Shown here: positions 32,001 to 59,866 of the stretch, piece after piece
Numbering within the stretch: position 1 is the stretch's first letter
Layout of the letters: each line of letters begins with the position of its first letter
Source of the DNA: a virus
DNA length: 64,000 nt
Direction: 5' to 3' (one strand)
IMG/VR virus record: IMGVR_UViG_3300030107_004238
Coordinates: 7,969 to 71,968 of that record
Notes under the pieces: model-generated
Seen by the model: only the letters and a program-made list of their open reading frames with translations
What the model was told of the DNA's origin: nothing
Database searches by the model: none
Program-made: the position numbers and the translations under genes

Positions 32001-34718
32001 TACGATGTTCAAATGTTATTTGTAGAAACATCACTGGATGTAGCTTTAGAAAGAAATAAACTTAGAAAAGAAAGATCATTAAGAGATAGTATTGTAAAAA
32101 GAAACCACGAAGCGGTACAAAAAAATAAATCTGAATTTAAAGAAATATTTGGCAAAGGATTTACAGAGATTAATACAGATAACTTAAAACAAAACGATCC
32201 AATACCAGCTAATGTATCAAATAAGATAAATGAATTTGTTACTGGCTATGAAAAAAGAAGATTAGATGCTGAAGAATTCGCTAGAGAAGGAGCTGACTTA
32301 CTAGCGCAGGGAGCTAAGTTTGATTTTTCAGAATTTAACGTTGTCATGGAAGGACAAACAGCACCATTGTTTAACAAGGCAATGAAATTACAAGATAAGT
32401 TTGGTAGTAAAGATATGTTCGTGTTAACAGCTAGACCAGCAGAATCAGCGCCACATATACATGAATTTTTAAAAGCTAATGGTTTAAATATACCATTAAA
32501 AAACATAACTGGTCTTGCTAATTCTACTGCAGAAGCTAAAGCGCTTTGGATAGCTGATAAAGTTGGTGAAGGTTATAATGATTTTTATTTTGCTGATGAT
32601 GCTTTGCAAAACGTTCAAGCTGTACAAAACATGTTAGATCAATTCGATGTTAAGTCTAAAGTCCAACAAGCTAAGATTAATTTTAGCAAAGGAGCTAAAG
32701 TACAGTTTAATGATATAATGCAAGACGTAACTGGCATTGATTCTAATAAAAGATTTTCATTGGCAAAAGCTAGAAAACGTGGAGAAAAGAAAGGAAGATT
32801 TAGACCTTTTATTCCACCATCACATGAGGATTTTATAGGGTTATTATACAACTTTATAGGTAAAGGAGAAAAAGGTAATCAACATAGAGACTTCTTTGAA
32901 AAGAACTTAATAAAACCATTGAATAGAGCTTATAATGAATTGAATGCTGCTAAACAAGTTATATCTAATGATTATAAAAACTTGATAAAGAAGTTTCCTG
33001 ATACTCGTAAAAAATTAACAAAGAAAACTCCAGATGGTGATTATACTTATGGTGACGCTTTGAGAGTATATCTTTGGGATAAGGCTGGGTTTGAAATACC
33101 GGGTATGTCTAAAACAGATGTAAAAGAATTAACTGATTTAGTAAAGTCAGATCCTAGTTTACAATCATTTGCGGATGCAGTTGGTTTAATATCTAGACAG
33201 AAAGAAGGGTATACAAAACCAAAAGAAGAGTGGGAAGTAGGTGATATAAGAACAGATTTAGCGGATGCTACTATGGACACTGGTAGACAAAAGTTTTTTG
33301 GAGAGTTTATAGAAAATGCAGATATAATTTTTGATAAAGAAAATTTAAATAAAATAGAAGCTGCTTTTGGAAGAGACTTTAGAGAAGCTTTAGAAGATAT
33401 GTTATACAGAATTAAGAATGGTAGAAAGAGGCCAACTGGTAACAACAAACTTGTAAATAGATTTACTGAATGGATAAACGGAGCTGTTGGATCAACAATG
33501 TTTATAAACACTAGATCAGCCGTATTACAGCAATTATCTATGGTTAACTTTTTAAATTTTGAAGACAACAATATATTTACAGCTGCCAAAGCTTTTGCAA
33601 ATCAAAAACAATTTTGGAAAGATTATGCTAAAATATTTAATTCAGATTTCCTAAAACAAAGACGGTCAGGTATAGCTTTTGATGTAAACGGCGCTGAATT
33701 AGCTCAGGCAGTATCTAAGTCTAAAGAGCCTTTTAGAGCCGCTATAAGACATTTATTACAAAAAGGTTTTATATTAACCCAGTTAGGTGATAGTAATGCG
33801 ATAGCTATGGGTGGTGCTACATTTTATAGAAATAGAGTTAATAAATATTTAAAAGATGGTTTAAGTCAGAAGGAAGCCGAGACAAGAGCTTGGGATGATT
33901 TTGTTGCGATAGCTGAAACCACGCAGCAATCAGCTAGAGCTGATATGACATCGGGACAGCAAAATTCACCTCTTGGTAAATTTATATTAGCTTTTCAAAA
34001 TGTTACTTCTCAGTATAACAGAATAATGAAAAAAGCTGGTTTGGATTTAATCAATAGAAGAAAATCACCACCTTATACTAGCCAAGTAAAAAGTGATATG
34101 GCTAATATTTCTAAAATAATATATTACGGGGCTATACAAAACGCTGTGTTCTATGGGTTACAAACAGCTTTATTTGCAATGATGTTTAGTGATGATGAAA
34201 AAGACGAAGAATTCTTTAAAAAGAAAAGAGATCGGGTGATTCATGGTAGTATAGATAGTATACTAAGAGGTATGGGTGTTGGTGGAGCTATAATCTCTAC
34301 GCTTATAAACACAGCTATGAAATTTGCAGCTGAACAAAATAAAGATTGGAATAGTTCAACTAGCATCTTAATGAATGAATTACTTCAATTATCACCACCT
34401 CTTGGTATTAAAGCTAGAAAACTAACTAGTGCTGAAAAAACACTAAAATATAATAAGAAGACTATTGAAAAAATGGATACGTTTGATTTAGAAAACCCGC
34501 TTTGGGAAGCTACATCAAACATTGTTGAGGGCACAACAAACGCTCCAGTTAACAGATTGCATAGATTAGTTACAAATACTGGAGAAGCTCTTAACGCTGA
34601 AAATGAATGGTGGCAAAGATTAGCATTGGGCTTAGGATGGAGCACTTGGGATGTTGGTATAAATACAAAGGAAAAATTGAAGAAGAAAAAGAGTAAAAGA
34701 AAAATTAGATTAAATTAA
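26037..34718 (+). CDS. Giant polyvalent (putatively virion-ejected) protein: TM-like segments, HExxH motif, sigma-70 region-2-like domain, HAD phosphatase with nested P-loop kinase
   Basis: IHELQH (~28857); PITSRIA...GILDLIREYKPESGVPLAAYINKFLPAR (~29420-29600); VLDFDDTL (~31590); GGAGSGKS (~31695) with VVIDGTG and VETSLDVALERN; VLTARP (~32421); FADDALQNV (~32590). Confidence 0.75.
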   Translation: MFEIYEVNGQRYEVSPDQLEKFFKDFPNATKVGKTSDSASADPTAESSDMGSILENGSLALPEAKDSKDIVRNLPLIDDAVTYDKDPVLKENILNSFFNTDNLFRPRAIDETQAPVTFSGIDRPSYGIHSNITVQGTDTEYKNTEEEDLINYFGKDKYNLYKKYLETGDLKTEDIPENLSKGFEDIKNEETSKRSSRLKKLYLDQNDHIKIGDSFYDGVAMDEDERGLYSTDFIDLYGEQEDLAKELTSGWRDHRGYTSNKTVFQTQKQKKGIAEKTVKMQNQYLTDLSTVLEEDYAAYEEYLKSLNIKSVDDLSTFINDPNIDINTRKEVLAKNRVMSKRLNDFKTMATKFDDRVAALSALDKSYDWGYRVGLSIERDIFGELFGAGKAIVALGAQETLGKDSEISKYLKDSYVSHIDYVESLKQKKEANLPQDTKFEDINSWNSFGDFVGEQLGNNILSVSTAGAYGLAVKTGSKQAAKWAGRAVLGTFFGVEGMGKVSEMEIAQKHAAENIKFIDEALADENTTPDVRIRLEEQKEFNEKALNYSQAERAFMGMTYGGIAAVAERMGTMRWIEDLYGTSKVVGPLTFKSGLHRAKNFILKVPGTEMLEETATQVGHNLMDVLILKENKSLIEGLDPDFFASVFVTSMAIGGPGVAGGVRNAFRGALQTREETKKFRDLKSEYAENHFILNQSHNRSQGGINKKQADVIKARQAEILKEIEVHDISSFNKIADLDSKQVENLFEVDRKQREIWKRNAQLGAIGKENKSILRESKKLNKEYNDLQSEKDAILESPARKREDKLKETAKEQGLEESAAMKQAWNYGRAAYYDNLVKGLGSKVKRFDGENMEQDLNKYLDEAIKSGKLKDKKLKDGTVITAEMQKKQIIESAKTKKNLDGSLNIGANGTFVGNDIITFENNRRLNMLYGNDLEKADAMQVAIHELQHKYDINKGLVKDGKVVASHKPLVTALKQHVKELYKRGDIDKKTYNQFKQRVDQYSDKVNKNKVVDQTELLTLLGTMKRAGMLKEEKSSPLYAAKSFINKVRAMVHGDNHTLLDMNTTKDVLRYIDTFNKRVEQGKKVAATIPEEEAISKLSKGMTNKAASDNVQRIYEEQGEGGAMDIIEQFKPITSRIAERRREAPNYDKELLMSEIEIGERGILDLIREYKPESGVPLAAYINKFLPARAIEASKRVLGEEFIEDISERVDIAAEEVTQEVKTKPKKKKIVLADRLGVTEEVAKAIKKIMPKIDFNKETFKTLKNQIPEITGEMFGIAPKKIKNLANLTKKELQSAQMFINKNANLLINMLPEGATAGGTATGVPNTLLKAFYTKTDRAKMVKTGSKAGLAVQQKNKIDKKEFLETFGIIDGKPIRTDRNTSARVLALANLTGKMITNQAVRQSLISGGKTVGEVTSLSDGKSVTMFSLGSRIKVTGPISEQAQRLADQIGKKATYDNMVKAAGLDIDTGELKLKPIDLTTEKGRQEYIGFIVEVLAPVFPKDILLAMSGSFARGDSAIEKANKNKFLFQNKEQFEIFLETLEATGVVFGQDMTVEDRNDILNAIKREGYGKATSKTQNKKMKDEDLKASKKRGFKLIWKSIQDNIQNDQRTIPGFALMLSSSSRFQGHFTRTGAIIDFVNSLTGKNREEHTSPITALGKYLFLHAITGDLFTGGKNSIFENATKSYFQGSLPVFMDNRLKLKGSYDYSSLPPIEHLEGILKGDISIWARYFHPNVNNNFNTDLDSMSKEDIANELHKIGGINPNVIYLANGNTIAQEFGVDVNVKITPQIVAAQQDLIYRMAIGEKISKSKIKSVLDSAVNLKIEKNLKENKTLNDAAVQGRKIIKESKGITVLDFDDTLATTKSGVRATIPNLDGTPKPGRKAILLAGGAGSGKSNVVKQLGLVKDGFKVVNQDIALEWLKKNAGIPTDMRDLTREQLSTLGKLSWEARKIAKRKYGKFKGQGDGVVIDGTGGSVKNIQTQKAELEAAGYDVQMLFVETSLDVALERNKLRKERSLRDSIVKRNHEAVQKNKSEFKEIFGKGFTEINTDNLKQNDPIPANVSNKINEFVTGYEKRRLDAEEFAREGADLLAQGAKFDFSEFNVVMEGQTAPLFNKAMKLQDKFGSKDMFVLTARPAESAPHIHEFLKANGLNIPLKNITGLANSTAEAKALWIADKVGEGYNDFYFADDALQNVQAVQNMLDQFDVKSKVQQAKINFSKGAKVQFNDIMQDVTGIDSNKRFSLAKARKRGEKKGRFRPFIPPSHEDFIGLLYNFIGKGEKGNQHRDFFEKNLIKPLNRAYNELNAAKQVISNDYKNLIKKFPDTRKKLTKKTPDGDYTYGDALRVYLWDKAGFEIPGMSKTDVKELTDLVKSDPSLQSFADAVGLISRQKEGYTKPKEEWEVGDIRTDLADATMDTGRQKFFGEFIENADIIFDKENLNKIEAAFGRDFREALEDMLYRIKNGRKRPTGNNKLVNRFTEWINGAVGSTMFINTRSAVLQQLSMVNFLNFEDNNIFTAAKAFANQKQFWKDYAKIFNSDFLKQRRSGIAFDVNGAELAQAVSKSKEPFRAAIRHLLQKGFILTQLGDSNAIAMGGATFYRNRVNKYLKDGLSQKEAETRAWDDFVAIAETTQQSARADMTSGQQNSPLGKFILAFQNVTSQYNRIMKKAGLDLINRRKSPPYTSQVKSDMANISKIIYYGAIQNAVFYGLQTALFAMMFSDDEKDEEFFKKKRDRVIHGSIDSILRGMGVGGAIISTLINTAMKFAAEQNKDWNSSTSILMNELLQLSPPLGIKARKLTSAEKTLKYNKKTIEKMDTFDLENPLWEATSNIVEGTTNAPVNRLHRLVTNTGEALNAENEWWQRLALGLGWSTWDVGINTKEKLKKKKSKRKIRLN

Positions 34719-36481: not shown

Positions 36482-36703
36482 ATGTGGAAATTATTTCAAG
36501 ACAAAAACGATATAAATGAAAAGAATATAATTGGCTTTATATCTTTTGGAGTAATGGTGTTATTTGCAATTACAGATCTTATAACTAGTTTCATATATGA
36601 GAACGGAACGTTAGTGATTAATGATACAATATATAATTCTTTTGTTCTTGTAACACTAGGGTGTTTTGGCATTAGTACATTTGAAAAAATTAAAACAAAA
36701 TAA
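36482..36703 (+). CDS. Small two-TM membrane protein (holin-like)
   Basis: Two hydrophobic helices and a basic C-terminus; likely start MWKLF at 36482. Confidence 0.55.
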   Translation: MWKLFQDKNDINEKNIIGFISFGVMVLFAITDLITSFIYENGTLVINDTIYNSFVLVTLGCFGISTFEKIKTK

Positions 36704-39700
36704 TGAAAAAGATTTTATATTTACTAGGATTAATAATATTAATATCGTGTAGCGCACAAAAAAAATGTTGTGCACAGGTAAACACCTTTCCATGGGTGTA
36801 TGACTTTGAGAGTATTATAGGATTGGAACAAGAAGTGAATGATGATGGTGATTGGTGGTTAATGCAAGGTCCAACAACTTCTGTTAACACTGGTCCTCCA
36901 GGAGATCACACTTATGGCAATGGTATTTATTATTATGTAGAATCTTCTTCGCCTAACTTCCCTAACAAAACGTTTGTGGCGTATACACCTAAATTTGATG
37001 TATCACAAACACCAGGTAAAGTGTTATCTTTCTGGTACCATATGTATGGCGCTGCTATGGGTGATTTGGAGGTTGGTTATATAGATAATGGTGGTTATAC
37101 AAGTTTAGGTGTTATATCTGGGAATCAAGGGAATCAATGGAAATTCGCTTACTACCCTATAGCCGCTACAGATTCTTTTACAATAGCTTTTACAGCTGTA
37201 ACTGGTTCTAGTTATACTAGTGATATAGCTATAGATGATATAATGGTTAGCGATCCGTTTAACGTTGTGTTTGGTTGTACTGATATTGTTTCTTCTAACT
37301 ACGATTCAACAGCTACGCATGATAATGGTAGTTGTATTTATTATTTTGGGTGTATAGATCCTACAGCAACTAATTATAATCCTTGGGCAAATGTTGATGA
37401 TGGTAGTTGTGTGCAAAACGTTTCTTGTGACACAACCCAATCTTTAATTGATGTGGCTATAAAATTAGACAATTGGCCTAGTGAAACTTCTTGGGAAGTA
37501 GTAGCTAATGGTAGCGTGATATATTCTGTTCCAACTGGTACTTATGATTACACACAAACAGGACAAACAGTACACACGCAGGTTTGTATACCTATAAGTG
37601 ATACAATAGTATTTACGATTAACGATACTTATGGTGATGGTATTGGAGGTGGTTCTGTAGTTGGTAGTTGTTTAGTAACTAACTTAGATTGTGAAGACAC
37701 ATTATTCTTATTAAGTCCACCAAATTTTGGATATACAGCGTCGTCTAACCCATATATATCTGATACTTGTAACAATGATAGTATTGTATTTGGCTGCACA
37801 ACTCCTAGTTATTTAGAATATGATTCTTTAGCTACACACGATGATGGAAGTTGTATGACATTAGCTACTTATGGCTGTACAGATCCAGCTGCATTTAATT
37901 ATGATCCAGCAGCTGATAGAATGCTGTTGACATCGCCTTGTACTTACGATTTAATACTGTATGATGATGGTGGTGATTCATGGGGAGCTTGTTGGTTAGG
38001 TGTTGAGCAGGGGGATTCTTTATGGCAATTTAAAATAGATCAAAATGGAGTTTATTCTGATACGTTTGCATTAACACTTAATTCTAACGACGAGGTGTAT
38101 TTTTACTACTTTGAAATACCTACACCTCAACAGAATCCACAACAGCTAGATATACAAACAATACAAAACTCTTTTAAAGTAGAAAACAATTATGGAGTTA
38201 TAATACACGAAGGTAATAATCCTTGGCCTGGTCCAAATGAAAATAAATTAAGAAATTATAGAAACGCTCTAGATATATATGAAGCGCAACCATTCTGTGG
38301 GGTCGAATGTATACCTGTTGTTGTAGGTTGTATGGATAGTGTAGCTTACAACTATAATGATTTAGCTAATACCAACGACACTTGTTATTACAACCCCGGT
38401 TGTACTAACCCAGGGTACTTAGAATATTATACACAAAATTATACAGCAGATATAGATGATGGGAGTTGTTTAACCTTAGCAATATTTGGTTGCACAGATT
38501 CCACTGCTTTTAATTATAATAATACAGCCAATGTAGACAATGGTGGGTGTATCGCGATAGTACTAGGGTGTATGAATTCTTTAGCTTTTAATTACAATCC
38601 TCAAGCTAATACACCTGATACTTGCATACCAGTTATATATGGCTGTACTTCCCCTATCGCTTTTAACTATGATAGCTTAGCTAATACAGATGATGGTAGT
38701 TGTATAGGGGTGGTTTATGGGTGTACTGATAGCACAATGTGGAATTTTATGCCTAGTGCGAATGTTGATGATTCTAGCTGTATACCATTTATCTATGGTT
38801 GTATGGATCCTACTATGTTTAATTATGATCCAAGTGCTAATACAGACAACGGGGCGTGTATACCATTTGTTTATGGGTGTATTGATTCTACAATGTTTAA
38901 TTACGATCCATTAGCGAATACCGATAATGGAAGTTGTATTCCATTTATTTATGGATGTACTAATCCAATAGCATTGAATTACGATCCTTTAGCTAATACC
39001 GATGATTTCTCTTGTGTGTTACCTATATATGGATGTATGGATTCTACAGCGTTTAATTATAACCCACTTGCTAATGTAGATAACGGAAGTTGTATTCCTA
39101 TTATATTAGGATGCACGGATCCAACGGCGTTAAACTATTGTGATAGTTGTAATACAGATGATTTTAGTTGTATACTTCCTATATATGGATGTACAGATAG
39201 CACTATGTTTAATTATAATCCTTTAGCAAATGTTGATAACAATTCCTGTATCCCTTATATTTATGGCTGTACTGACCCTAGTATGCTTAATTACAACCCT
39301 AACGCTAACACCGAAGACTTCAGTTGTGTTCCTTATATTTATGGGTGTACTGATAGTATTGCTCTTAATTATGATTCACTTGCTAATACTGACAATGGCT
39401 CGTGCATTTCTATTGTTGAAGGATGCATGGACCCTTCAGCGTGGAATTATGATATACTAGCTAACGTTAACGATTCTAACTCTTGTTTGTATAACGCCGG
39501 TTGTGTTACTGGCGCAGGAAACCCTTATTGGTTAAATGATCCTTGCTACGCTTGGGTTATTTCAGTAGATGATTACTGTTGTGAAAACGAATGGGATACA
39601 ATATGCCAAGCTACTTATAATTATTGTGAAGGAAGCTGGTTAGGGCCAATACCAACTAGATTAAGTTTAGAAGATTTAATTGTTTACCCAAATCCAACTA

Positions 39701-39879
39701 GCGATAAAATAAATATAAACAAAAAAGTTGACATTAGATTAATTAATACCTTAGGGGATGTGATTATATTAAAAAACAATATAAACGTCTTAGACGTGTC
39801 CTATTTAAGTCCTGGAATGTATACAATACAAATAATGTATAAAAATAAATCTTTTGTAAAAAGAATTATTAAAGAATGA
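36703..39879 (+). CDS. MAM-domain, Cys-repeat protein with a type IX secretion (type A) C-terminal sorting domain
   Basis: Signal peptide / possible lipobox LISC; MAM motifs GPPGDHT, LSFWYHMYG, GNQGNQW, DIAIDDI; about 19 GCTD..A.NY...AN.DDGSC repeats; CTD VYPNPTSD...LSPGMYTIQI...KRIIKE. Confidence 0.85.
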   Translation: MKKILYLLGLIILISCSAQKKCCAQVNTFPWVYDFESIIGLEQEVNDDGDWWLMQGPTTSVNTGPPGDHTYGNGIYYYVESSSPNFPNKTFVAYTPKFDVSQTPGKVLSFWYHMYGAAMGDLEVGYIDNGGYTSLGVISGNQGNQWKFAYYPIAATDSFTIAFTAVTGSSYTSDIAIDDIMVSDPFNVVFGCTDIVSSNYDSTATHDNGSCIYYFGCIDPTATNYNPWANVDDGSCVQNVSCDTTQSLIDVAIKLDNWPSETSWEVVANGSVIYSVPTGTYDYTQTGQTVHTQVCIPISDTIVFTINDTYGDGIGGGSVVGSCLVTNLDCEDTLFLLSPPNFGYTASSNPYISDTCNNDSIVFGCTTPSYLEYDSLATHDDGSCMTLATYGCTDPAAFNYDPAADRMLLTSPCTYDLILYDDGGDSWGACWLGVEQGDSLWQFKIDQNGVYSDTFALTLNSNDEVYFYYFEIPTPQQNPQQLDIQTIQNSFKVENNYGVIIHEGNNPWPGPNENKLRNYRNALDIYEAQPFCGVECIPVVVGCMDSVAYNYNDLANTNDTCYYNPGCTNPGYLEYYTQNYTADIDDGSCLTLAIFGCTDSTAFNYNNTANVDNGGCIAIVLGCMNSLAFNYNPQANTPDTCIPVIYGCTSPIAFNYDSLANTDDGSCIGVVYGCTDSTMWNFMPSANVDDSSCIPFIYGCMDPTMFNYDPSANTDNGACIPFVYGCIDSTMFNYDPLANTDNGSCIPFIYGCTNPIALNYDPLANTDDFSCVLPIYGCMDSTAFNYNPLANVDNGSCIPIILGCTDPTALNYCDSCNTDDFSCILPIYGCTDSTMFNYNPLANVDNNSCIPYIYGCTDPSMLNYNPNANTEDFSCVPYIYGCTDSIALNYDSLANTDNGSCISIVEGCMDPSAWNYDILANVNDSNSCLYNAGCVTGAGNPYWLNDPCYAWVISVDDYCCENEWDTICQATYNYCEGSWLGPIPTRLSLEDLIVYPNPTSDKININKKVDIRLINTLGDVIILKNNINVLDVSYLSPGMYTIQIMYKNKSFVKRIIKE
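38320..39490 (+). repeat. About 78-bp (26-aa) Cys-rich tandem coding repeats
   Basis: Consecutive YGCxDxxxxNYxPxANxDxxSCIP units, divergent at DNA level. Confidence 0.85.
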
Positions 39880-42822: not shown

Positions 42823-43062
42823 TTACTTTTTAACGCATTTATCGCATAAGAAAAAATACATAATAAATACTAAAGCTAATAGTCCTGAAAATCCAGCACC
42901 ACCAATTCCGTTTACTAAATTTATAAAATTAGTAATTATATCCATATTAAATACTTTAACTCCTGTTAATAATTGCCATAAAATTGTTACTGGTACAAAA
43001 GCCATCATGATAGATACTAATCCACCGAAAAACTCTGTACAATACTTCATTACTTTTTCCAT
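42823..43062 (-). CDS. Small two-TM membrane protein
   Basis: Two hydrophobic segments; GFSGLLALVFIMYFF. Confidence 0.65.
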   Translation of the reverse strand: MEKVMKYCTEFFGGLVSIMMAFVPVTILWQLLTGVKVFNMDIITNFINLVNGIGGAGFSGLLALVFIMYFFLCDKCVKK

Positions 43063-43084
43063 TTTGTTATGTTTTAGTTAATAC

Positions 43085-43519
43085 TTAAAATTTATAAGAT
43101 AGTCCTAAATTAAATTTACCCTCTCTATCACCATCTGCATTTTCTTTCATAGACATTACATAGTAAGGGTCAATTGAAAGACTTTTCCAAACGTTAAAAG
43201 AATAACCTAATCCTAGTTCCATTTTATCCATCATTTTATCTTCAGACTCAGATACATAATTATATACACAAGTAGCCCAAGCTCCTGATTTGTGTATTAT
43301 ATATCTACCTAACAACTCGTAGTTTTCCTCACCATCTCTAGTAAGTCCAACAGTTAGTTTGTCATTAACTTGATAAAGAACACCGATTTTATCTGTGAAA
43401 TTATAAGTAGTTTCACCTACGGTATCTGTAACCTCGTTAACAGTAGTTGTTACTGAAAACTGTGCTGATGCAATAGTAGTAATTAAAGCACACAACGTAG
43501 TTAAAAATAATTTTGTCAT
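43085..43519 (-). CDS. Small (about 8-stranded) outer-membrane beta-barrel protein
   Basis: Signal peptide ...TTIASA/QF; LGLGYSF; C-terminal FNLGLSYKF beta-signal. Confidence 0.75.
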   Translation of the reverse strand: MTKLFLTTLCALITTIASAQFSVTTTVNEVTDTVGETTYNFTDKIGVLYQVNDKLTVGLTRDGEENYELLGRYIIHKSGAWATCVYNYVSESEDKMMDKMELGLGYSFNVWKSLSIDPYYVMSMKENADGDREGKFNLGLSYKF

Positions 43520-43534
43520 AATTAATTGTTTTAG

Positions 43535-45409
43535 TTAAAGGCTTGTTATTTCGCATGATCCACCGGCACAAGCCAATTCGCCTGATAGATCGGTATTGTC
43601 AGCATCTTCTATTACATTTTCTAAACTTATGTTATGTAATTTAGAAACTAATTTATCAAACTCTTTTTTAGTTATATCTTCAAAAGGAGCTTGAGTATAT
43701 GTTCCACCATCATAAGGTAAAACAGATAAACCATTGTAACACTCTCTATTATCCCACATCCATTTACCAGCTTTATTCCACTCATCTTTTCTTAAGCTAA
43801 TTGTAGCAGATACATTATGGGTATTTGAACCAATCCTATGACCAGTTTTAACCCATTCAGTAGCAACTCTTTTAACTCTTTTCAACAAGTCAAAAGCAGA
43901 TTCAGTTCTTAATATAGAACCTTTAGGCGCTGATTGTGGTATTTCGATAACAGCCGTGTCGTGTGGTCTAAAATATTCATCTTGTACTAATTCTGGATGG
44001 TGTATAGCAAGATATTTATATATAGCCTCGTTTTTACCTACACGAAGTCTTCTAATATAATAATCGTTGTGCCAAGCATGAATACCTGAAGATGTTCCAA
44101 GCACAAGAGATGTTGTCCCTGCTGGTTTAACACATGTTGTTCTAGCAGCTTTATTTATCCCTATTAGTTTTGCTACTCTCGTGTTTTCTCTTTTTACGAT
44201 ACTTGCAGCGGCCTTCATATCCAGCGGGAGCACAGCGGCACTCGCGATTCCTGTCATTGACACACCTATAAGTGCGTCTTTCTCTGTTGTTTCTTGCCAT
44301 ATTTCTCTTAGATAGTGGAATTCCGTATAACCTGCTTGAAGCGTTCCAATGAAGGCTGCAGCTTTAACTCGATCATTCAGGTCTTCTTGGTCTGTGACGT
44401 CACTTACATTAACTTCACACAGATTACAGAACTGATAAGGCCTTAGTGCTATTTCACAGCAAGGATTAGTTCCCCAATCCTTATCATGGTTGAAATATAT
44501 TCCTGGTTCACCAGCCCCGGATAATTCAATACGTTTCCACAAATCTAAGAAAAATTCTTTAGTAACTTTGTGTCGCATTAGTACAGCAGAGTTATTTGCT
44601 CTACCTCTTTGTGGGTTTTTTTCCCACCAACTTCCAGATTTACACGAAATCATTTCTTCATCATATGCTGAAAACAAACTTATTAACGCTGCTCGTCTGA
44701 TACCACCAGCGAGTACAGCATCAGCAATATGACAAATAATATCATGGACTTCAAGAGTAGTAAGTTGTGTTCCATCTTGTTTTGATTCTAGTATTCCTTT
44801 TATTTTTACAATACATTCTTTTAAAGGTTGAGGTCCTGGTGCTTTTCCACCTGAGGTCACAAGCATAGCTCCCTTTGGTCTAATATCAGAATAATCAAAT
44901 TTTATCTTAGATGATCTCTTAGAGCCTAAATAAGACTTAATTAAAACTTTTATTGCATCTGACCAACCCTCAATACTATCTCCAATAACAAATCTTCTAG
45001 TTCTACCTTGAAATGGTTTTGTTATATGTGGAAGAGAGGTAATATGATGTCTTTGAACACTATAACCAACACCGCAACCAGATAGCAAAAGGAACATACA
45101 CTCACTAAAGCTATCGACATGATCGATAGGTAAGTAACTACAGTTATATAATCTATTCGGACTGATTTCAATTGGCTTACCACTAAACTGAAGCGAACGC
45201 ATACTTGGTAAAACTTTTTTCTTATAGACATATCTATATACTTCTTCTATTTGATTAAATAATTTTGGATATTTTTTTTGGTGCATTTCCTTGTTTCTTG
45301 AGACTAGTTCTTCCCATGTTTCTCTTCTATTGAGTTCTGGAAGATACTTAGCATACTTCATGTAGATTGTTAAATCTGAAAGTATTTTTTTATTAAGATC
45401 TTTATCCAT
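43535..45409 (-). CDS. nrdJ: Class II (adenosylcobalamin-dependent, monomeric RTPR-type) ribonucleotide reductase
   Basis: YNCSY, GCGVGYSV, GGIRRAALI, GEPG, TNPCCEI, FCNLCE, TCVKPAGT and C-terminal LACAGGSCE; no beta-subunit gene adjacent. Confidence 0.9.
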   Translation of the reverse strand: MDKDLNKKILSDLTIYMKYAKYLPELNRRETWEELVSRNKEMHQKKYPKLFNQIEEVYRYVYKKKVLPSMRSLQFSGKPIEISPNRLYNCSYLPIDHVDSFSECMFLLLSGCGVGYSVQRHHITSLPHITKPFQGRTRRFVIGDSIEGWSDAIKVLIKSYLGSKRSSKIKFDYSDIRPKGAMLVTSGGKAPGPQPLKECIVKIKGILESKQDGTQLTTLEVHDIICHIADAVLAGGIRRAALISLFSAYDEEMISCKSGSWWEKNPQRGRANNSAVLMRHKVTKEFFLDLWKRIELSGAGEPGIYFNHDKDWGTNPCCEIALRPYQFCNLCEVNVSDVTDQEDLNDRVKAAAFIGTLQAGYTEFHYLREIWQETTEKDALIGVSMTGIASAAVLPLDMKAAASIVKRENTRVAKLIGINKAARTTCVKPAGTTSLVLGTSSGIHAWHNDYYIRRLRVGKNEAIYKYLAIHHPELVQDEYFRPHDTAVIEIPQSAPKGSILRTESAFDLLKRVKRVATEWVKTGHRIGSNTHNVSATISLRKDEWNKAGKWMWDNRECYNGLSVLPYDGGTYTQAPFEDITKKEFDKLVSKLHNISLENVIEDADNTDLSGELACAGGSCEITSL

Positions 45410-45539
45410 GCCAAATTGTAATACAAAGATCTATAAAAGGAAAATATAAAACGTGATTTGTTTTGGACTTTTCTTTGTATGACCTGAATCCTATTAATAT
45501 CCCAGGGTAAAACCCTAAACTAAATTCCCAATCTTTCAT
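45402..45539 (-). CDS. 45-aa hypothetical protein
   Basis: MKDWEFSLGFYPGILIGFRSY...HVLYFPFIDLCITIWHG*, read manually; fills the gap and overlaps the nrdJ start. Confidence 0.6.
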   Translation of the reverse strand: MKDWEFSLGFYPGILIGFRSYKEKSKTNHVLYFPFIDLCITIWHG

Positions 45540-45544
45540 TTAAT

Positions 45545-45997
45545 TTAATTTTTTTTAGTTATTAATTTAATTACTTCGTCACATTCTTTTTGATTCTGAG
45601 GTTTATATAAGGTTACATGTTTTAAATTATCATTAACATATTTTTTAAACATTTTCCATCGAATTGGAAAACTTTCATTTGCTCTACCCTTACATTCTAT
45701 TATAAACGAGTCACTTACAAAGTCTGGTGTGTATTTAATGGGAAGTACTTTTTTGCTACCTCTATTTACCAAATCACCCTTACCATTACTTTGTCTTTCA
45801 TAACTTTCGTTTTTAAACTCAAAACCTTCTTGAACAATATATGTTTGGCCTTCGTACTTAGCTTTTATTTTAGCTTTTTTTAAAGCCATATACATATATT
45901 TTTCTAAACCAGAAGCAAACTTGATCCCGTCGAATGTGACTTTCTTTGCTCTGACGGGACCACGTTTTCTTTTATACTTCTTTTTCATTTGACACAA
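45545..45997 (-). CDS. T7 endonuclease I-like PD-(D/E)xK nuclease / junction resolvase
   Basis: FASGLE, YE, YTPDF, IIECKG. Confidence 0.8.
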   Translation of the reverse strand: MCQMKKKYKRKRGPVRAKKVTFDGIKFASGLEKYMYMALKKAKIKAKYEGQTYIVQEGFEFKNESYERQSNGKGDLVNRGSKKVLPIKYTPDFVSDSFIIECKGRANESFPIRWKMFKKYVNDNLKHVTLYKPQNQKECDEVIKLITKKN

Positions 45998-46301
45998 ACG
46001 GGTTTTTCATTGACTTTAGCTCTTCTATTTCTTCTCGAGCAGTTTGTATGTATAGCACAGCGTCCATAAGTTCTTCTTGTATATCTGTTAAATATCCATA
46101 CAAATCTTTCATTTTAAACCTACGCTCGTCATCTAATGTTGATCCATATTTTTCATAACCAACGTCTGATCTTGATACAAATTTATCAACTACATTTTTA
46201 ACAACTGGATCACGGAAGCCATAAGACTCTCTACATGTGATACCGTTTTTACCATCCATTATTTCTCTATCACTCATATTAATCTTTTTTAAATGTTCCA
46301 T
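45972..46301 (-). CDS. Small all-alpha NTP-pyrophosphohydrolase-like protein
   Basis: RSDVG.EKYG.TL and QEELMDAVLY acidic helix; true start is probably MSDREI (~46277). Confidence 0.55.
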   Translation of the reverse strand: MEHLKKINMSDREIMDGKNGITCRESYGFRDPVVKNVVDKFVSRSDVGYEKYGSTLDDERRFKMKDLYGYLTDIQEELMDAVLYIQTAREEIEELKSMKNPFVSNEKEV

Positions 46302-47157
46302 TATCCATTTTACCCGTTCTGTCTTTGATTTCGTTATAAGCTTTAACTATGCACTCTTCAATAGACACACCCATCAATTCGGAGAAATTAGTTAATACAA
46401 CAACCATATCACCAACAGCATCTATACCTTGTTCTAAATCCTCTTTTAATATAGCTCTACCTAATTCTCCAGCTTCTTCCATTAATTTAATATACTGTGT
46501 TTTTGGGTCTCCTTTTTCATACAAACCTCTTTCATCAGCCCAAGCTCTAATTAAATCAAAATAGTTTGAATCAGATTCTTTTTTATGTTTAGCTTGTACG
46601 CCTGTTGGAGATAATGCTCCAGATATAGTTTTTCCATCATACATATCTTTAGGTTTTTCTTCTTGCTTAACGATTGGTTCTATATTACTATAAGGATCAT
46701 TATTATCATAATATCTAGCAAAAGCTTTATTATATATATAACATCTATCTCTATTATACATTGATTGCTTAGCATTTGACATTATCCAATTGATAGTGTT
46801 TTGTGTTAAAACAAATGACCCATGTTCTGTTTCCCATGTCATATCTAAATTATCCATGAGTTGTCCTTTTAATTTGTCAACGGGACACGGGAACGTTGTA
46901 GTTTGTTCTGTTATGTTTATATTCATTTTGTGTTTATTTTTATTAAAATTAAGTTTATTATAAGGGATATCATCTACTCTATACTTATAAAATTTTTGCA
47001 TTATTCTCTCACCTTCAGATATAAAATCTATATCATCAGATGTTTCTATTATTTCGTATTCACCAGGATAATATCCTTGTTGTTTGTGAACACGCTCTTC
47101 AAGGTTAGTTGTTACGCCAATCTTTTTTCCTGGTATGTGATATAAGTAATATGTCAT
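46279..47157 (-). CDS. GIY-YIG-like N-terminal domain fused to a MazG-like NTP pyrophosphohydrolase
   Basis: YYLYHIPGKKIGVTTNLEER at N-terminus; KLMEEAGEL...DAVGDMVVVL...AYNEIKDRTG at C-terminus. Confidence 0.75.
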   Translation of the reverse strand: MTYYLYHIPGKKIGVTTNLEERVHKQQGYYPGEYEIIETSDDIDFISEGERIMQKFYKYRVDDIPYNKLNFNKNKHKMNINITEQTTTFPCPVDKLKGQLMDNLDMTWETEHGSFVLTQNTINWIMSNAKQSMYNRDRCYIYNKAFARYYDNNDPYSNIEPIVKQEEKPKDMYDGKTISGALSPTGVQAKHKKESDSNYFDLIRAWADERGLYEKGDPKTQYIKLMEEAGELGRAILKEDLEQGIDAVGDMVVVLTNFSELMGVSIEECIVKAYNEIKDRTGKMDNGTFKKD

Positions 47158-47846
47158 ATTTTATCGTTATATAAATGCATATTATGTGCAAAATGATAAT
47201 ATACGCCTGGTTCAATATTTAATTCATTAGAGATCATCTTTTGCAGCTTAGAGAAACAATATTGATCATTACAAAAACCATACCAAAGATCATTACTGCG
47301 CATTGTTACACACATGTCTAGTCTACCATGTAATATTGTGAATTGTATCGCGTAAGTACAAGGCGTATCTTTTTCATATTGCTCATGTTCTTTACCATCA
47401 TATATAGATATAGTAGCATGTCTAGTATCTTTATTGTTTTTTAGTTTTTCTACAATATAATCTATTTGTGATTTTTCAGCATAATCTCTACGTTGCCATT
47501 GCCAACCATAATTAGAATTAACTTTACCAGCATCATTAGCCATACGTTTCCATATTTCGGGTACCTTACCATATATTTTACCAAGTTCAAAAACGTAAGG
47601 TATTCCTGTTAAATACCATTGCCATTCAGCTTCGGCATAATCTAATTTCCAATTACGCTCTTTATTTATTATCTTATTATCTTGTGAGTCTGTAATATAA
47701 AACCCAACATTAAACAAGGCTTTAGTATCTGCAAAATCTATACCTTCTTGTATTATACGATCATGTAAGTATTCGTATGCTTCATTCGCGTTTCTAAAGA
47801 CTTTATTATTTATTGTATTTATCATAATAATATTTATAGTATTCAT
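47154..47846 (-). CDS. Thymidylate synthase superfamily; dCMP hydroxymethylase/methylase-like
   Basis: NYGWQW, catalytic PCT, MRSNDLWYGFCND, NMHLY; Asp at the specificity position. True start is probably MINTINN. Confidence 0.85.
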   Translation of the reverse strand: MNTINIIMINTINNKVFRNANEAYEYLHDRIIQEGIDFADTKALFNVGFYITDSQDNKIINKERNWKLDYAEAEWQWYLTGIPYVFELGKIYGKVPEIWKRMANDAGKVNSNYGWQWQRRDYAEKSQIDYIVEKLKNNKDTRHATISIYDGKEHEQYEKDTPCTYAIQFTILHGRLDMCVTMRSNDLWYGFCNDQYCFSKLQKMISNELNIEPGVYYHFAHNMHLYNDKI

Positions 47847-48090
47847 TAACTTTTTCGTGTACTTTTTCGTCTTCGTATGTATTTGGATCTTCGTGAATAT
47901 TACCGTTTATATTTATATGTACTTTCCATTTACTCATATCGTTTTTCCAATCAGGAATAATACCCACACCTATTTTAGCGTGTGTTAAACACCAACCTAT
48001 AATTTTCATTTCTTCTTTCGACCACGTTTTATCTGGCGGTTTTCTACTAGGTGATTTATACCATTTTTTAAATGCCATTATGCTTCCCAA
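47806..48090 (-). CDS. Hypothetical protein
   Basis: ORF overlapping its neighbours in the operon; no motif recognised. Confidence 0.6.
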   Translation of the reverse strand: MGSIMAFKKWYKSPSRKPPDKTWSKEEMKIIGWCLTHAKIGVGIIPDWKNDMSKWKVHININGNIHEDPNTYEDEKVHEKVNEYYKYYYDKYNK

Positions 48091-49793
48091 GGCATTGGTC
48101 CACCATCTTCAACTATTGATTCATATGGAATAAAAGAGCCAGAGCGTGGTTCCCAAGTAAAATGAGATTCAGCACCATTTTCACCAAGATTTTGGAATTT
48201 AACCTTAAGTACTTTAACTTTAGTAGTTTTAGCATCATAATCTCGATGTACTAAAAGTCCATGGTAACTAGCATCATACCATTCACCTCCACCTTTAATA
48301 TTATACATAGTAGGTTCTTCAATTTTCCCGTCTTGTCCTTTATACATTTTAGTTGGGTGTGCTACGATAAAAACTAATACATCATACTTTTTACAAAAAG
48401 TTTCAATCTTAGCTAAATAATCCATTGTGTAACGGTTAACATCATCTGACACCGCGTTTGCGTCTCTTATCTTGTTAAATGGATCAATAACCAAACATTT
48501 AATACCTTTACGTTTAACTAATTCAGCACCTTTACGTAATACAGATTCTAAACTATATTTATCCATATCAATAAAAAAGTAATTATCGTTTACGTGATCT
48601 GCTACTTCTTTCCATTTACCACCACCTATATCTCCTGCTGATGGCATATCTTGCCATGTTTTCCTCATTAATTTATGGGCATGGAGATATACTGGTTGAT
48701 TTTCTGGACTAGCATACGCAGTTTTCCAGCCATAGTTATTATTGTAACCAACAACCATTTGATCAACAAAGTCAGACTTACCGCTACTAGGGATACCAGT
48801 AACAGTAATAAACTGCCCAGTGTAAGTACTAAAAATCTCATCAAAGTTTTTAAGTCCAATTTGGAAACCGGGTTTAAAACCGTTTTTAACAAAGTCTCTA
48901 AGCTCATCTTCAACATCTTTTAAAGTTGACACATTTTCTAATGGTACCGGTCGTGAGTTGTGTATAGCACTTCTCAACGCATCAGCACCGTGTTCCAACA
49001 AAAAATCATTCGCATCTTTATTACCGTTGAAATCTATAAGATAACATACTTCTGCTCCTAAACGCCTAACAAGTTCTCGTTGTAACATTTGACCAGGTTC
49101 GTCCTGATCTACAGCTAATATAATTCTAGTTTTGTCATCAAAATAATCAATACAATTATCTAAGTAATCTAAATTGTTATTATTTAATGTAGCTCCATTT
49201 GGTACTGATATTGCGTTTGGTATTCCAGCTTCATGTAATGCTAGTACATCCATTTCACCTTCAACTATAACACAGGTATCATAACCTATAATACTATTGA
49301 TATTATAAAATACTTTTTCAGCTCCTTTGTAAAGCTTAAAGTTTTTTCTACCATCTCTATATTTCACATTAATCAATTGATCACCTATGAAATAATTAAA
49401 TTGAATAGTATTTTCTTTTTTACCTGTTTGAGGCATAAACTCAGGACCTTCAGCAACCTGAAGATCTCTAAGTGTTTGCTTTGATATACCTCTTGTTCCA
49501 AACCATGTTTCAACATTCGTACTTACCTCGTTAAAGTTGGCTGGCGTATCCGGTCTAACATAGACTCGTTCGCTACTGCCTTTGCGTTGATAAGTATGAA
49601 GTTGAAACGTTTTGTTACAGTTGTGACAGGTACCGAGACCACGTTCCCAATCATAAGAAGAACATTGTGCCTTCTGATTTTTAGGTTTCCTAGTGTGAGA
49701 GCACAAGGGACAAGTCCCTTGCGTAGCTCCCTCTTTTAGGCCGTGTTGATTGAATACATCAATAACAAATCCATTGATCTCTTCTCTATTCAT
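48078..49793 (-). CDS. Primase-helicase (T7 gp4/Twinkle-like)
   Basis: Zn finger CPLC...CHNC; TOPRIM IVEGEMD and DQD; SF4 helicase GIPSSGKS, LVIDP, VAHP. Confidence 0.92.
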   Translation of the reverse strand: MNREEINGFVIDVFNQHGLKEGATQGTCPLCSHTRKPKNQKAQCSSYDWERGLGTCHNCNKTFQLHTYQRKGSSERVYVRPDTPANFNEVSTNVETWFGTRGISKQTLRDLQVAEGPEFMPQTGKKENTIQFNYFIGDQLINVKYRDGRKNFKLYKGAEKVFYNINSIIGYDTCVIVEGEMDVLALHEAGIPNAISVPNGATLNNNNLDYLDNCIDYFDDKTRIILAVDQDEPGQMLQRELVRRLGAEVCYLIDFNGNKDANDFLLEHGADALRSAIHNSRPVPLENVSTLKDVEDELRDFVKNGFKPGFQIGLKNFDEIFSTYTGQFITVTGIPSSGKSDFVDQMVVGYNNNYGWKTAYASPENQPVYLHAHKLMRKTWQDMPSAGDIGGGKWKEVADHVNDNYFFIDMDKYSLESVLRKGAELVKRKGIKCLVIDPFNKIRDANAVSDDVNRYTMDYLAKIETFCKKYDVLVFIVAHPTKMYKGQDGKIEEPTMYNIKGGGEWYDASYHGLLVHRDYDAKTTKVKVLKVKFQNLGENGAESHFTWEPRSGSFIPYESIVEDGGPMPWEA

Positions 49794-50102
49794 CTAAAAC
49801 GGTAGATCTTCTTCAGTCGCAGCAGGAGCAGACGCTGGGGCTGATTGATTATCTCTTGGGGCAACTTCAACATTGTTTCCATTAGTCCAAACTACCTTTA
49901 CATTACCAAGATAAGTTTTAGCTGCTTTCGCATCTCTTTCTTCCTTAGTTTGCTCTACAACTACAGGGCCTTGATTACCAAACTGATCTGTTTCGTCATT
50001 CAAAGTAATTGTAATTGGTAAGTATTTACCCTTTTTACCTACAAAGATTTTATCTTTAGGTATACTATTAAGGTTAATACTTGTTTTAATAATACTTGCC
50101 AT
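49794..50102 (-). CDS. Putative single-stranded DNA-binding protein
   Basis: Small beta-rich domain, flexible linker and acidic C-terminal EEDLPF tail. Confidence 0.7.
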   Translation of the reverse strand: MASIIKTSINLNSIPKDKIFVGKKGKYLPITITLNDETDQFGNQGPVVVEQTKEERDAKAAKTYLGNVKVVWTNGNNVEVAPRDNQSAPASAPAATEEDLPF

Positions 50103-51602: not shown

Positions 51603-52361
51603 TTACAGGTAATCAAGCACTTGCGAGTGATCTACATTTTCTATTAATTTATCTACTGCTTGCTTTTTTAATTGTGAAACTCTAACATAAGAACTGTTGC
51701 CTTCAATACCTATTTTATTAGCTATCTCTGTAGCGGAATGTTTTTCGCAATCAAGTCCATAACTTAATCTTAACACCTCAAACTCTTTATCTGTTAAGTG
51801 TTGTTTTAATAAACTTGTTAGATATAAATTCAATAAAGTCATATTATATGGTTCACTTTCGTCTGGTATTTGATATATCATATTAGAATCATCGTTTGGT
51901 CCTTCATCTATACTTAAAAAGATAGAGTTAAAAAACATAGCTACCATCTTTTTGTTTTTACCAAAGTTCTTACGTATTTCATTATACATATGTTCTGGTA
52001 TTCTAATATCGCCTCTATTAATATCTATACCTCTTCTAATTGCTCCTTTAATTCTTTTAGAAAAGAAAGACTTTAAAGTTTTTTCTATATCATCAGATTT
52101 TTCCAATACTTCTCTATCTAATCTATCTACTGCTTTTTTTAATCCTACACTTCCTTCTTGTATCAAGTCTAATATACTCATAACTCCCGATGCTTGTTGT
52201 GATGTTGAGAATTTTCTAGCTATATTTTCTACAAGTGGCAGAAAAATTATTACTAATTCTTCTTTTGTGTATTCATTCCATTCTTTTTTACCTATTCTTT
52301 TTATAGATGCTTCTACATCATTTTTATATCTAATATAATTTTGTATATTATAGTTCTTCAT
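51603..52361 (-). CDS. Phage sigma-70-family RNA polymerase sigma factor
   Basis: LPLVENIARKF, DLIQEGSVGL.KAVDR (region 2), IRIP, and LTDKE.EVLRLSYGL...RVSQLKKQAVDKL (region 4). Confidence 0.9.
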   Translation of the reverse strand: MKNYNIQNYIRYKNDVEASIKRIGKKEWNEYTKEELVIIFLPLVENIARKFSTSQQASGVMSILDLIQEGSVGLKKAVDRLDREVLEKSDDIEKTLKSFFSKRIKGAIRRGIDINRGDIRIPEHMYNEIRKNFGKNKKMVAMFFNSIFLSIDEGPNDDSNMIYQIPDESEPYNMTLLNLYLTSLLKQHLTDKEFEVLRLSYGLDCEKHSATEIANKIGIEGNSSYVRVSQLKKQAVDKLIENVDHSQVLDYL

Positions 52362-52794
52362 TTTTGTGTTTTTTATAGATCAATTCTAATGTTGACGGCC
52401 AATCTAAACATCTTTGAGCTGTGCCAAACCAAAGCCATGTGCCTTTAAAATCTGGTTGTCCTCTCCATCTACTATCATCAATTAAAATATCTCCGATTAA
52501 TAAATCTTTTCTATGTGTTAATATTAGTTTTCGTTTTAACCATGGGAAATGTTCTGCTAACCACTCTCTTTTAGCTCCCCATTCTGATGGTCTATCCCAT
52601 GGTGGTGTTGATGCTATAAATATATCGAAATCTTTATTTAATTTTATTAGTGCATCTTGTGCGCCAGGTATTATTTCTAAATTTCTATAATCTACATGTT
52701 TATCTGGTCTGTGTTTCCAACCACCTTCATCTGCTGCTTTTTTAAAGTTAGCTATAACACCATCCATATCTATAAATATTATTTTTTTACTCAT
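52348..52794 (-). CDS. 5'(3')-deoxyribonucleotidase (NT5C, HAD family)
   Basis: FIDMDGVIANF; K..WL.EHFP; LILTHRKDLLIGDILIDD. Confidence 0.9.
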   Translation of the reverse strand: MSKKIIFIDMDGVIANFKKAADEGGWKHRPDKHVDYRNLEIIPGAQDALIKLNKDFDIFIASTPPWDRPSEWGAKREWLAEHFPWLKRKLILTHRKDLLIGDILIDDSRWRGQPDFKGTWLWFGTAQRCLDWPSTLELIYKKHKNEEL

Positions 52795-56772: not shown

Positions 56773-56807
56773 TATATTATCCTACTTTATTCGTATTTAT
56801 ATTGTAA
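56773..56807 (-). promoter_or_regulatory. Class A (early) promoter-like motif
   Basis: Minus strand TTACAA-ta-TAAATACGA-N8-GGATAATATA. Confidence 0.75.
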
Positions 56808-58455: not shown

Positions 58456-58490
58456 TATATTATCCAATAGTAATCGTATTTAGTTTGTAA
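58456..58490 (-). promoter_or_regulatory. Class A (early) promoter-like motif
   Basis: Minus strand TTACAA-ac-TAAATACGA-N8-GGATAATATA. Confidence 0.75.
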
Positions 58491-59479: not shown

Positions 59480-59701
59480 TTACTCGCAGATTTCTCTTGC
59501 CAACATTGGCACATTATTACTAGCAGTATATGACTTATACTTTTCCCAACACGGTAGAGTTTCTAGTTTTGACTTCATTACTTCAAACACTTTGTCGTGA
59601 TTATAAGTGGCAGATTTACCATTTTTGAAGTTTACTGTTATTACTGCATTTTTGCCTATTAAGGACTTTCTTACTACGAATCTTTTACTTTTTAATTCCA
59701 T
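59480..59701 (-). CDS. Hypothetical early protein
   Basis: KRFVVRKSLIG...YNHD...CW.KY.SYT; directly downstream of a class A motif. Confidence 0.7.
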   Translation of the reverse strand: MELKSKRFVVRKSLIGKNAVITVNFKNGKSATYNHDKVFEVMKSKLETLPCWEKYKSYTASNNVPMLAREICE

Positions 59702-59739
59702 ACTTTAATTATTTATTTAGTTATTAATTTATTTACATT

Positions 59740-59774: not shown

Positions 59775-59866
59775 AAGTATATTGTTTGTTTATTATATAA
59801 TTTACTATTGTATGTACTGCGCGACTTCTCTCATTGTATAATTTCTTTTTATTTATTATTTACATA

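Follow-up and report, generated by a model that had tools for sequence, protein, structure and literature searches.

We analyzed a 64,000-nucleotide stretch of viral DNA (the window), bases 7969 to 71968 of the 71,968-bp IMG/VR record IMGVR_UViG_3300030107_004238, which CheckV rates as 100% complete. On its minus strand, the window encodes a homologue of thymidylate synthase (TS) followed by a fusion protein that ends in a MazG-type nucleoside triphosphate (NTP) pyrophosphohydrolase domain. Its residues mark the TS homologue as, very probably, a C5 enzyme specific for cytosine; the most likely assignment is a deoxycytidine monophosphate (dCMP) hydroxymethylase, whose product would be 5-hydroxymethyl-dCMP (hmdCMP). 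A 5-hydroxymethylcytosine (5hmC) pathway of the T4 kind, minus kinase, glycosyltransferase, and polymerase and with the MazG fusion in place of gp56, is a credible reading of the module, and the phage DNA probably holds modified cytosine. The making of 5hmC at the nucleotide level as a defense against restriction has been a textbook principle since phage T4.

Diagnostic residues and phylogeny of the TS homologue

The TS homologue is encoded by an open reading frame (ORF) of 230 amino acids as called (47154 to 47846, minus strand); its start is uncertain, with relatives starting near residue 8 or 15. The protein matched PF00303 with an E value of 1.7e-23 (83.6 bits; cut-off, 24.3) and was the sole match to this family in the complete genome. 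A search of the Protein Data Bank (PDB) returned 116 TS-family sequences at E <= 0.01, with T4 dCMP hydroxymethylase (1b49) at the top (E = 4.3e-17) and Bacillus subtilis ThyA (5.1e-15) and MilA (1.2e-13) next. The initial annotation had warned that the gene would be misnamed thyA, and this concern was justified: JGI sources name its relatives "thymidylate synthase," and all seven NCBIfam TS equivalog models scored far under their cut-offs (the best reached 73.6 bits against 174.55). The PHROG families that it matches carry the TS label as well.

The same annotation had pointed to an Asp eight residues past the Asp of the RSxD motif. We found that the ORF reads M182-R-S-N-D186-L-W-Y-G-F-C-N-D194, a stretch that HMMER aligned to RSNDVVFGFRND of T4 dCMP hydroxymethylase (gp42). 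As had been claimed, Asp194 aligns with Asp179 of the T4 enzyme (HMMER) and with Asn177 of Escherichia coli ThyA (MAFFT). In the comparison, reference genes were taken from annotated records (T4 gp42, E. coli ThyA, the Xp12 TS homologue, RB69 gp48, SPO1 gp29, and five other phage homologues); residues were read from alignments with the query, and motifs were also read without alignment.

One study (PMC13326640) reports that N177D gives dCMP specificity, that L143D/E goes with a hydroxymethyl product, and that D169N is a mark of flavin-dependent 5-hydroxy-dCMP synthases; all the 5-hydroxy-dCMP synthases tested there have Asn at position 169. In T4 gp42, according to a second study (PMC6400193), Asp145, which lies three positions ahead of the catalytic Cys (position Cys-3), activates the substrate water and forms, with Ser94-x-Tyr96, the signature of hydroxymethylation, and the D145N enzyme is inactive. 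A third study (PMC5175136) links the CMP preference of MilA to Ala and Lys in place of the Ser and Arg of deoxy-specific enzymes.

The TS homologue contains D160-x-x-C163-T164, S111-N-Y113, M-R183-S-N-D186, G190, D194, E74, I98, W99, R142, H224, and Y226, each of them identical to its counterpart in T4 gp42 (the T4 positions matched were Glu60, Ile81, Trp82, Ser94, Tyr96, Arg123, Asp145, Cys148, Thr149, Met-Arg-Ser-Asn-Asp171, Asp179, His216, and Tyr218). C163 corresponds to the catalytic Cys (T4 C148), E74 to the general-acid Glu (T4 E60), and D194 to the cytosine-specificity Asp (T4 179; E. coli N177). The hydroxymethylation signature (Asp or Glu at Cys-3 plus Ser/Thr-x-Tyr) is present as D160, S111, and Y113. 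The Asp of E. coli position 169 is kept as D186, and the deoxyribose-type Ser and Arg are present as S184 and R142 (Ala and Lys in the CMP-preferring MilA). At the diagnostic sites, E. coli ThyA has Leu, His, Gln, Cys, and Asn, and the SPO1 and ViI-like deoxyuridine monophosphate (dUMP) hydroxymethylases carry Asn both at Cys+1 and at residue 165 and lack Asp177.

The diagnostic signature was invariant in all 120 of the closest database relatives (77 to 94% identity). We also examined the 150 nearest representatives of 50%-identity clusters, 22 of which were fragments without the motif. The 128 motif-bearing representatives had Asp169 without exception, Asp177 in 126 cases, Asp at Cys-3 in 123, and Thr at Cys+1 in 117. 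Since Asp194 is shared by every close relative and by nearly all motif-bearing representatives, it is not a chance feature of one sequence.

A quick maximum-likelihood tree of 57 rows was then built (12 references and query, 43 of the 104 representatives of 200 to 350 amino acids, and 2 close relatives; it omitted the other 61 representatives in this size range and the 46 outside it). The two rows that diverged first were E. coli ThyA, which had been chosen as the outgroup, and the Xp12 homologue. A branch with 100% support in the Shimodaira-Hasegawa-like approximate likelihood ratio test (SH-aLRT) united all enzymes with Asp at Cys-3, including the query, and left E. coli ThyA and the Xp12 homologue outside. 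The SPO1 and ViI-like dUMP hydroxymethylases formed a separate clade (98), and the query fell within a 19-row clade (97) together with gene 32 of Bacteroides phage BF486P2.

The Xp12 homologue (QNN97214.1, annotated "thymidylate synthase"), which we take to be the dCMP methylase of this 5-methylcytosine (5mC) phage, has Asp at position 177 like the query. Unlike the query, it has a full-length C terminus, with 61 residues after His-x-Tyr, and carries Asn at Cys-3 and Pro at Cys+1. The initial annotation had named 5hmC or 5mC as the modified base. A cytosine-type enzyme is indeed indicated; the Asp at Cys-3 and the Ser-x-Tyr motif narrow the choice to 5hmC, and the 5mC half of the proposal is disfavored by the Asn at Cys-3 of the Xp12 homologue and by its place outside the branch.

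BF486P2 gene 32 is the closest homologue from a cultured phage (226 amino acids; 42.8% identity) and shares the GFCNDQYCFSKL motif. It is annotated as a deoxycytidylate 5-hydroxymethyltransferase, apparently automatically. Its locus differs from the one described here: close to gene 32 lie another TS homologue and a dut gene of the trimeric type, and no MazG was detectable by hidden Markov model (HMM).

The MazG fusion protein and the conserved gene order

The fusion protein (292 amino acids; 46279 to 47157, minus strand) has a start codon that shares bases with the stop codon of the TS gene (ATGA). Three of its parts are conserved, and a variable disordered linker separates them, as seen in the alignment and in a structural model with a predicted local distance difference test score (pLDDT) of 79. 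The third part (residues ~196 to 292; 46282 to 46572, minus strand) is the MazG-like neighbor that had been proposed, recognized by PF03819, by its fold, and by invariant acidic residues. The match to PF03819 was 22.4 bits (cut-off, 22), and all 23 homologues matched the family (best E = 6.1e-8). Residues E227, E228, E231, D246, and D250 are invariant and are read as a putative metal site.

VIA aligned the MazG domain with 1yvw (Z score of 10.1, root mean square deviation of 2.9, 82 residues aligned) and with 1vmg (Z score of 9.8), and the Foldseek list includes DCTPP1, S-2L MazZ, and HisE; both searches used the whole model and were filled by matches of this domain. It is plausible that the MazG domain is a deoxycytidine triphosphatase (dCTPase). 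Its substrate is not deducible from fold similarity, because the matches include dCTPases, MazZ, HisE, and MazG alike. In PMC13326640 (Table 1), dCTPase models of phages RB69 and DLP3 match DCTPP1 and MazG structures, and such matches are common to those models and to the MazG domain described here.

The N-terminal domain (residues 1 to 70; 46948 to 47157, minus strand) may be of a T5orf172/MUG113-type, GIY-YIG-like kind, to judge by subthreshold HMM matches and the model. The match to T5orf172 had an E value of 0.0033 (18.3 bits; cut-off, 20) and that to MUG113 an E value of 0.0052. Among 23 homologues of the fusion protein, 5 matched T5orf172 (best E = 2.6e-4) and 2 matched MUG113; we take both to be families of the GIY-YIG clan. 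Modeled within the whole protein, the domain has a beta-beta-alpha-beta-alpha order at pLDDT 82 to 92, which is compatible with a GIY-YIG-like fold, and the Atlas leads agree with this type.

Between the two lies a conserved alpha/beta domain (residues ~76 to 155; 46693 to 46932, minus strand; alignment and model), which was modeled at pLDDT 84 to 94. Its invariant residues are M78, N81, T83, T86, T88, F89, W124, R138, Y140, Y142, N143, K144, and A145. The middle domain had no Pfam match and no similarity to TS C termini. The idea that the C terminus of the TS homologue had been relocated to this next ORF was rejected, as the middle-domain HMM scored no more than 2 bits on all 12 TS-family rows.

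The next gene encodes a conserved helical protein of 109 amino acids (45972 to 46301, minus strand; alignment and model) with an invariant D-x-QEE-x-MD-x-x-LY motif. It had been described as a second all-alpha NTP pyrophosphohydrolase, and this part of the proposal was not confirmed. The protein had no Pfam or NCBIfam match, its PHROG matches carry no function, and no PDB match was obtained by sequence or profile. BLASTP and HMM comparisons with T4 gp56 and with the neighboring MazG found nothing, and hhalign against the MazG protein gave a probability of 0.4%. Foldseek gave no match with an E value below 6, and Atlas returned viral hypothetical proteins only. The model has two long helices and a pLDDT of 68.5, so the absence of a fold match is weak evidence. 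Of the pair of pyrophosphatases that had been proposed, we therefore accept only the MazG domain and not the 109-residue protein.

The endonuclease and the ribonucleotide reductase (RNR) that had been noted beside these genes were both found. The first is a DUF1064 protein (45545 to 45997, minus strand; PF06356, E = 1.5e-9), whose sole nuclease-type label is "Holliday junction resolvase" from phrog_190 (E = 6.2e-13). It is a syntenic neighbor with no shown link to base modification. The second is a class II, adenosylcobalamin-type RNR (43535 to 45409, minus strand; TIGR02505, phrog_367, PF02867, and PF21995). The model nearest to it is that of the monomeric triphosphate reductases (TIGR02505 RTPR, E = 1.5e-85; 287.8 bits, under the cut-off of 340), and it matches phrog_367 at an E value of 6.8e-134. 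An RNR of the monomeric triphosphate-reductase type yields deoxynucleoside triphosphates (dNTPs) directly, and dNTP supply is the probable role of this one.

The operon order was compared across 80 related IMG/VR loci with TS homologues of 60 to 94% identity, many of them cut by contig ends. The TS homologue was present in 79 loci, the MazG fusion in 78, the 109-residue ORF in 77, the DUF1064 gene in 76, the primase-helicase in 71, an adjacent RNR in 33, and the ligase in 30. Because the loci represent one lineage, these counts show conservation and not independent linkage.

The NT5C-type 5'(3')-deoxyribonucleotidase that had been noted does lie nearby (52348 to 52794, minus strand), between a sigma-factor gene and a gene for a 208-residue protein, but it is not part of the conserved module and was present in none of the 80 loci. 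Since BLASTP found no match to it there and its flanking genes directly abut in locus L012, NT5C is an accessory gene of this genome.

We also scanned 22 more distant or annotated loci, some of them short, for MazG; 8 were from the same phage group, binned into metagenome-assembled genomes. A search for TS-MazG linkage with protein P0140 as the query led to one locus, and a profile scan of contigs led to 16, of which 8 were of the same phage group. The sole independent adjacency found was in an unrelated contig (L102), where the TS homologue is immediately preceded, on its upstream side, by two separate ORFs that each encode MazG alone. In the loci of Enterococcus phage VPE25 and BF486P2, dut stands in place of MazG.

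Proposed pathway and competing explanations

The explanation that we favor, and regard as likely on balance, is that a dCMP hydroxymethylase and a MazG dCTPase act with host kinases and the host replisome to produce DNA with unglycosylated 5hmC. The class II RNR would supply dNTPs, and the MazG domain would hydrolyze dCTP to dCMP and pyrophosphate, which would both feed the hydroxymethylase and lower the competing dCTP, as gp56 does in T4. Held by Asp194, dCMP would be attacked at C6 by Cys163, with methylene-tetrahydrofolate as the one-carbon donor. Asp160, together with Ser111 and Tyr113, would then activate a water molecule that hydrates the exocyclic methylene to form hmdCMP, a step that takes the place of the methyl-forming hydride transfer. 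Host kinases would phosphorylate hmdCMP and the host replisome would incorporate it; both are invoked because no phage kinase or polymerase was found. The resulting DNA would resist cytosine-dependent restriction.

T4 gp42 works with the dCTPase gp56, the deoxynucleoside monophosphate (dNMP) kinase gp1, and glucosyltransferases. T4 gp42 (1b49, 1b5e, and 6a9a) and the query have in common the TS fold, the diagnostic residues, and an accompanying NTP pyrophosphatase gene. In contrast, the two enzymes are only ~30% identical, the query is 16 residues shorter, and it has 4 residues after His-x-Tyr where T4 gp42 has 28. The pyrophosphatase here is a MazG domain fused to two other domains, and no kinase, glucosyltransferase, or phage polymerase was found.

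The association of a TS homologue with a pyrophosphohydrolase has already been reported by MetaGPA, a study that included sewage and coastal viromes (PMC8670742, eLife 2021). In that report, TS homologues with Asp177 are the top marker of contigs selected for modified cytosine and co-occur with PF01503 pyrophosphohydrolases, and DNA ligase domains are also associated with modification. The TS homologue, pyrophosphohydrolase, and DNA ligase are all present in the genome analyzed here. The pathway characterized by MetaGPA differs in adding a carbamoyltransferase, and none was found here.

The initial annotation had seen no glycosyltransferase or dNMP kinase in the window, and the scans of the genome agreed. 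Among ~45 ORFs from all parts of the genome, Pfam detected neither a dNMP kinase nor a glycosyltransferase, and also no carbamoyltransferase, dCMP deaminase, or DNA polymerase. When 267 ORFs were searched for the Walker-A motif, there were four matches (the primase-helicase, two giant structural proteins, and a peptidase by chance) and no small stand-alone kinase. The only kinase-like domain found was an AAA_33/Zeta_toxin P-loop (Walker A, GGAGSGKS) at residues 1880 to 2033 of a 2893-residue ORF in the structural block (26037 to 34718, plus strand).

Several observations weigh against the favored explanation. In the TS homologue, the second phosphate-binding residue of T4 (Arg124) is replaced by His143, and the T4 residues that bind the folate tail (Arg177 and Arg220) are replaced by Cys192 and Asp228; position 124 varies elsewhere too, with Gln in the SPO1 and ViI-like enzymes. 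The four residues after His-Leu-Tyr are the fewest among the characterized enzymes compared. A short C terminus is compatible with activity, since the experimentally active RB69 gp48 ends 12 residues past its H-x-F motif. Of the phylogeny that had been proposed with T4 gp42, Xp12, and ThyA, the separation of the query's branch from ThyA and Xp12 was obtained, but a sister relationship of the query to T4 gp42 was not shown, as T4 and RB69 attach at another place in the tree, on long branches. The tree was also rooted on a sole true ThyA.

The points against extend to the partner genes. The MazG fusion has no detectable sequence similarity to T4 gp56, and its MazG type occurs in 1043 phage records, mostly of Streptococcus and Staphylococcus phages and also of Paenibacillus phages, and is common in phages without a TS homologue. 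Thirteen of the 22 more distant or annotated loci, some of them short, lacked MazG. The complete genome has no dNMP kinase, glycosyltransferase, or DNA polymerase that could be found; many ORFs have no family match, so a kinase could be hidden among them. T4, RB69, and DLP3 use a dedicated kinase, according to PMC13326640. Finally, the literature searched gave no chemical or enzymatic data for this phage group.

A bolder version of the favored explanation, which we offer tentatively and consider unlikely, is a minimal pathway of two genes. In it, a C-terminally trimmed hydroxymethylase and the nuclease-like/MazG fusion would suffice for the exchange of cytosine for unglycosylated 5hmC, with the T5orf172-like domain attacking unmodified host DNA, the MazG domain removing dCTP, and host kinases and the host replisome doing the rest. 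The fusion would then do, as a single chain, what EndoII and gp56 do separately in T4. As one option, the kinase-like domain of the 2893-residue protein could supply the missing phosphorylation.

On the other hand, the enzyme may act on dCMP and add another C5 group (5-methyl as in Xp12, 5-hydroxy as in RB69, or an undescribed chemistry), so that the DNA is modified with something other than 5hmC. We consider this improbable. Asp177 by itself fixes only the cytosine substrate, and the loss of the folate-tail arginines and the short C terminus would fit a different chemistry. RB69 gp48 and DLP3 gp80 are like the query in being short TS homologues of the same broad clade with Asp177 and an acidic residue at Cys-3. 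For RB69 gp48, which has Asp177 and Glu143, the residue rules once failed: PMC13326640 reports that it makes 5-hydroxy-dCMP by an unexpected flavin-dependent hydroxylation. However, RB69 gp48 and DLP3 gp80 have Asn169, as do all the 5-hydroxy-dCMP synthases tested in that work, whereas the query keeps Asp (D186), and their genes lie beside arabinosyltransferase and kinase genes. The methyl variant is countered by the Asp at Cys-3 and the Ser-x-Tyr motif of the query (the residues at Cys-3 and Cys+1 of the Xp12 homologue are Asn and Pro) and by the position of that homologue outside the 100% branch in the ThyA-rooted tree.

Equally improbable in our estimate is that hmdCMP is made but not incorporated in bulk, with partial substitution or manipulation of the nucleotide pool as the only outcome. 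This explanation is raised because the phage has no kinase, proven dCTPase, or polymerase of its own; glycosyltransferase is absent from the finds as well, and MazG specificity is not given by the fold. In PMC13326640, the RB69 and DLP3 TS homologues alone in E. coli gave only trace incorporation, and clear peaks appeared when their kinases were added. Nevertheless, the catalytic positions invariant in 120 of 120 relatives and the cassette kept in 78 of 80 loci argue for a selected function, and in PMC8670742 no marker ranks above Asp177 TS homologues among contigs that withstand a selection for complete cytosine modification.

That the protein is an ordinary dUMP enzyme (a TS or a dUMP hydroxymethylase) in a phage with canonical cytosine is very improbable: the database and PHROG labels and the lack of any other TS in the phage would suit it, but the enzyme has Asp and not Asn at position 177 and Thr and not His or Asn at Cys+1, the dUMP hydroxymethylases with their Asn residues and without Asp177 form a separate clade, and the best NCBIfam TS equivalog falls far below its cut-off.

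Two annotated loci outside the lineage carry related enzymes. In Enterococcus phage VPE25 (L008, 5992 to 9905), a TS homologue with Asp177 and Asp at Cys-3 is followed by dut, a T4-like beta-glucosyltransferase gene, and a nucleotide-sugar synthetase-like gene, which suggests glucosylated 5hmC in this group, with the enzyme annotated as thymidylate synthase. In Agathobaculum phage AB434P2 (L010, 3838 to 4500), a gene annotated as "deoxyuridylate hydroxymethyltransferase" nevertheless has Asp177 and Thr at Cys+1, a cytosine-type signature, and the annotation is probably wrong about the substrate.

Genome, host, and distribution of the phage

Parts of the stretch were present in 20 marine metagenome runs from 9 studies, IMG/VR holds 571 relatives, and a protein search for relatives gave at least 8000 candidates; on these counts the lineage is very abundant. 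The runs were searched as stored contigs, which carry no information on base modification. The RNA-library run X19 had contigs 90 to 99% identical across all 30 bins, a finding that does not show transcription. A Megablast search of positions 43000 to 50000 against deposited phages gave no close relative, although near-identical records were possibly not covered.

If the favored explanation is true, a very abundant marine phage lineage, among the commonest flavobacterial-type phage groups of the ocean, has 5hmC DNA. This would have consequences for the study of ocean viromes by restriction-based, bisulfite/EM-seq, and nanopore methods, and it would show that a marker of base modification is overlooked wherever a pipeline names the gene thyA. 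A small enzyme would become available for hmdCMP production, and the entry of a modified nucleotide into the DNA of a phage without its own kinase or polymerase would become a testable question.

The phage is a marine one whose host is probably a member of the Bacteroidota. This host assignment is made because its primase-helicase resembles that of Cellulophaga phage phi10:1 (40% identity) and because a 1058-residue protein (36703 to 39879, plus strand) carries a sorting domain of type IX secretion. The latter protein begins with a MAM domain, and its sorting domain, at the C terminus, is of the Por_Secre_tail family (E = 7.3e-10); it is unusual for a phage gene to carry an export signal specific to Bacteroidota.

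The window has a G+C content of ~32%. Structural genes run rightward over the first 42.4 kb (1 to 42.4 kb), and replication and nucleotide genes run leftward from 43 to 58 kb. The record ends overlap within a GroEL gene, and therefore the assembly is circular or terminally redundant. The phage encodes both GroEL and GroES (63248 to 64000 of the window and, outside it, G000:C1:36-1662), with the GroEL gene spanning the record ends, so that the genome is taken to be closed. A 137-residue SET-domain protein (PF00856, E = 6.4e-9) is also encoded outside the window (G000:C1:5964-6374, locus L109). In the structural block, a 3396-residue ORF (10601 to 20791, plus strand) has the C-terminal domain of the crAss-virus muzzle protein (PF25729, E = 3.7e-7), a hint that the tail may be organized in a crAss-like way.

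A tRNA scan and an Rfam scan were both empty, and a promoter and terminator scan was uninformative, with 24 promoter-like sites against 37.4 expected. A 27-nucleotide motif, TATATTATCCA-N4-GT-N-TCGTATTTA, occurs in five copies at up to three mismatches, against none expected in 100 shuffles. The copies are at 56773 to 56799, 58456 to 58482, 59740 to 59766, and 59867 to 59893 on the plus strand and at 59957 to 59983 on the minus strand. They occupy spaces that separate the leftward early genes, as well as the divergent, AT-rich region from 59700 to 60500, which also has a 48-nucleotide direct repeat and inverted arms. The motif may be an early promoter, an operator, or an origin element.

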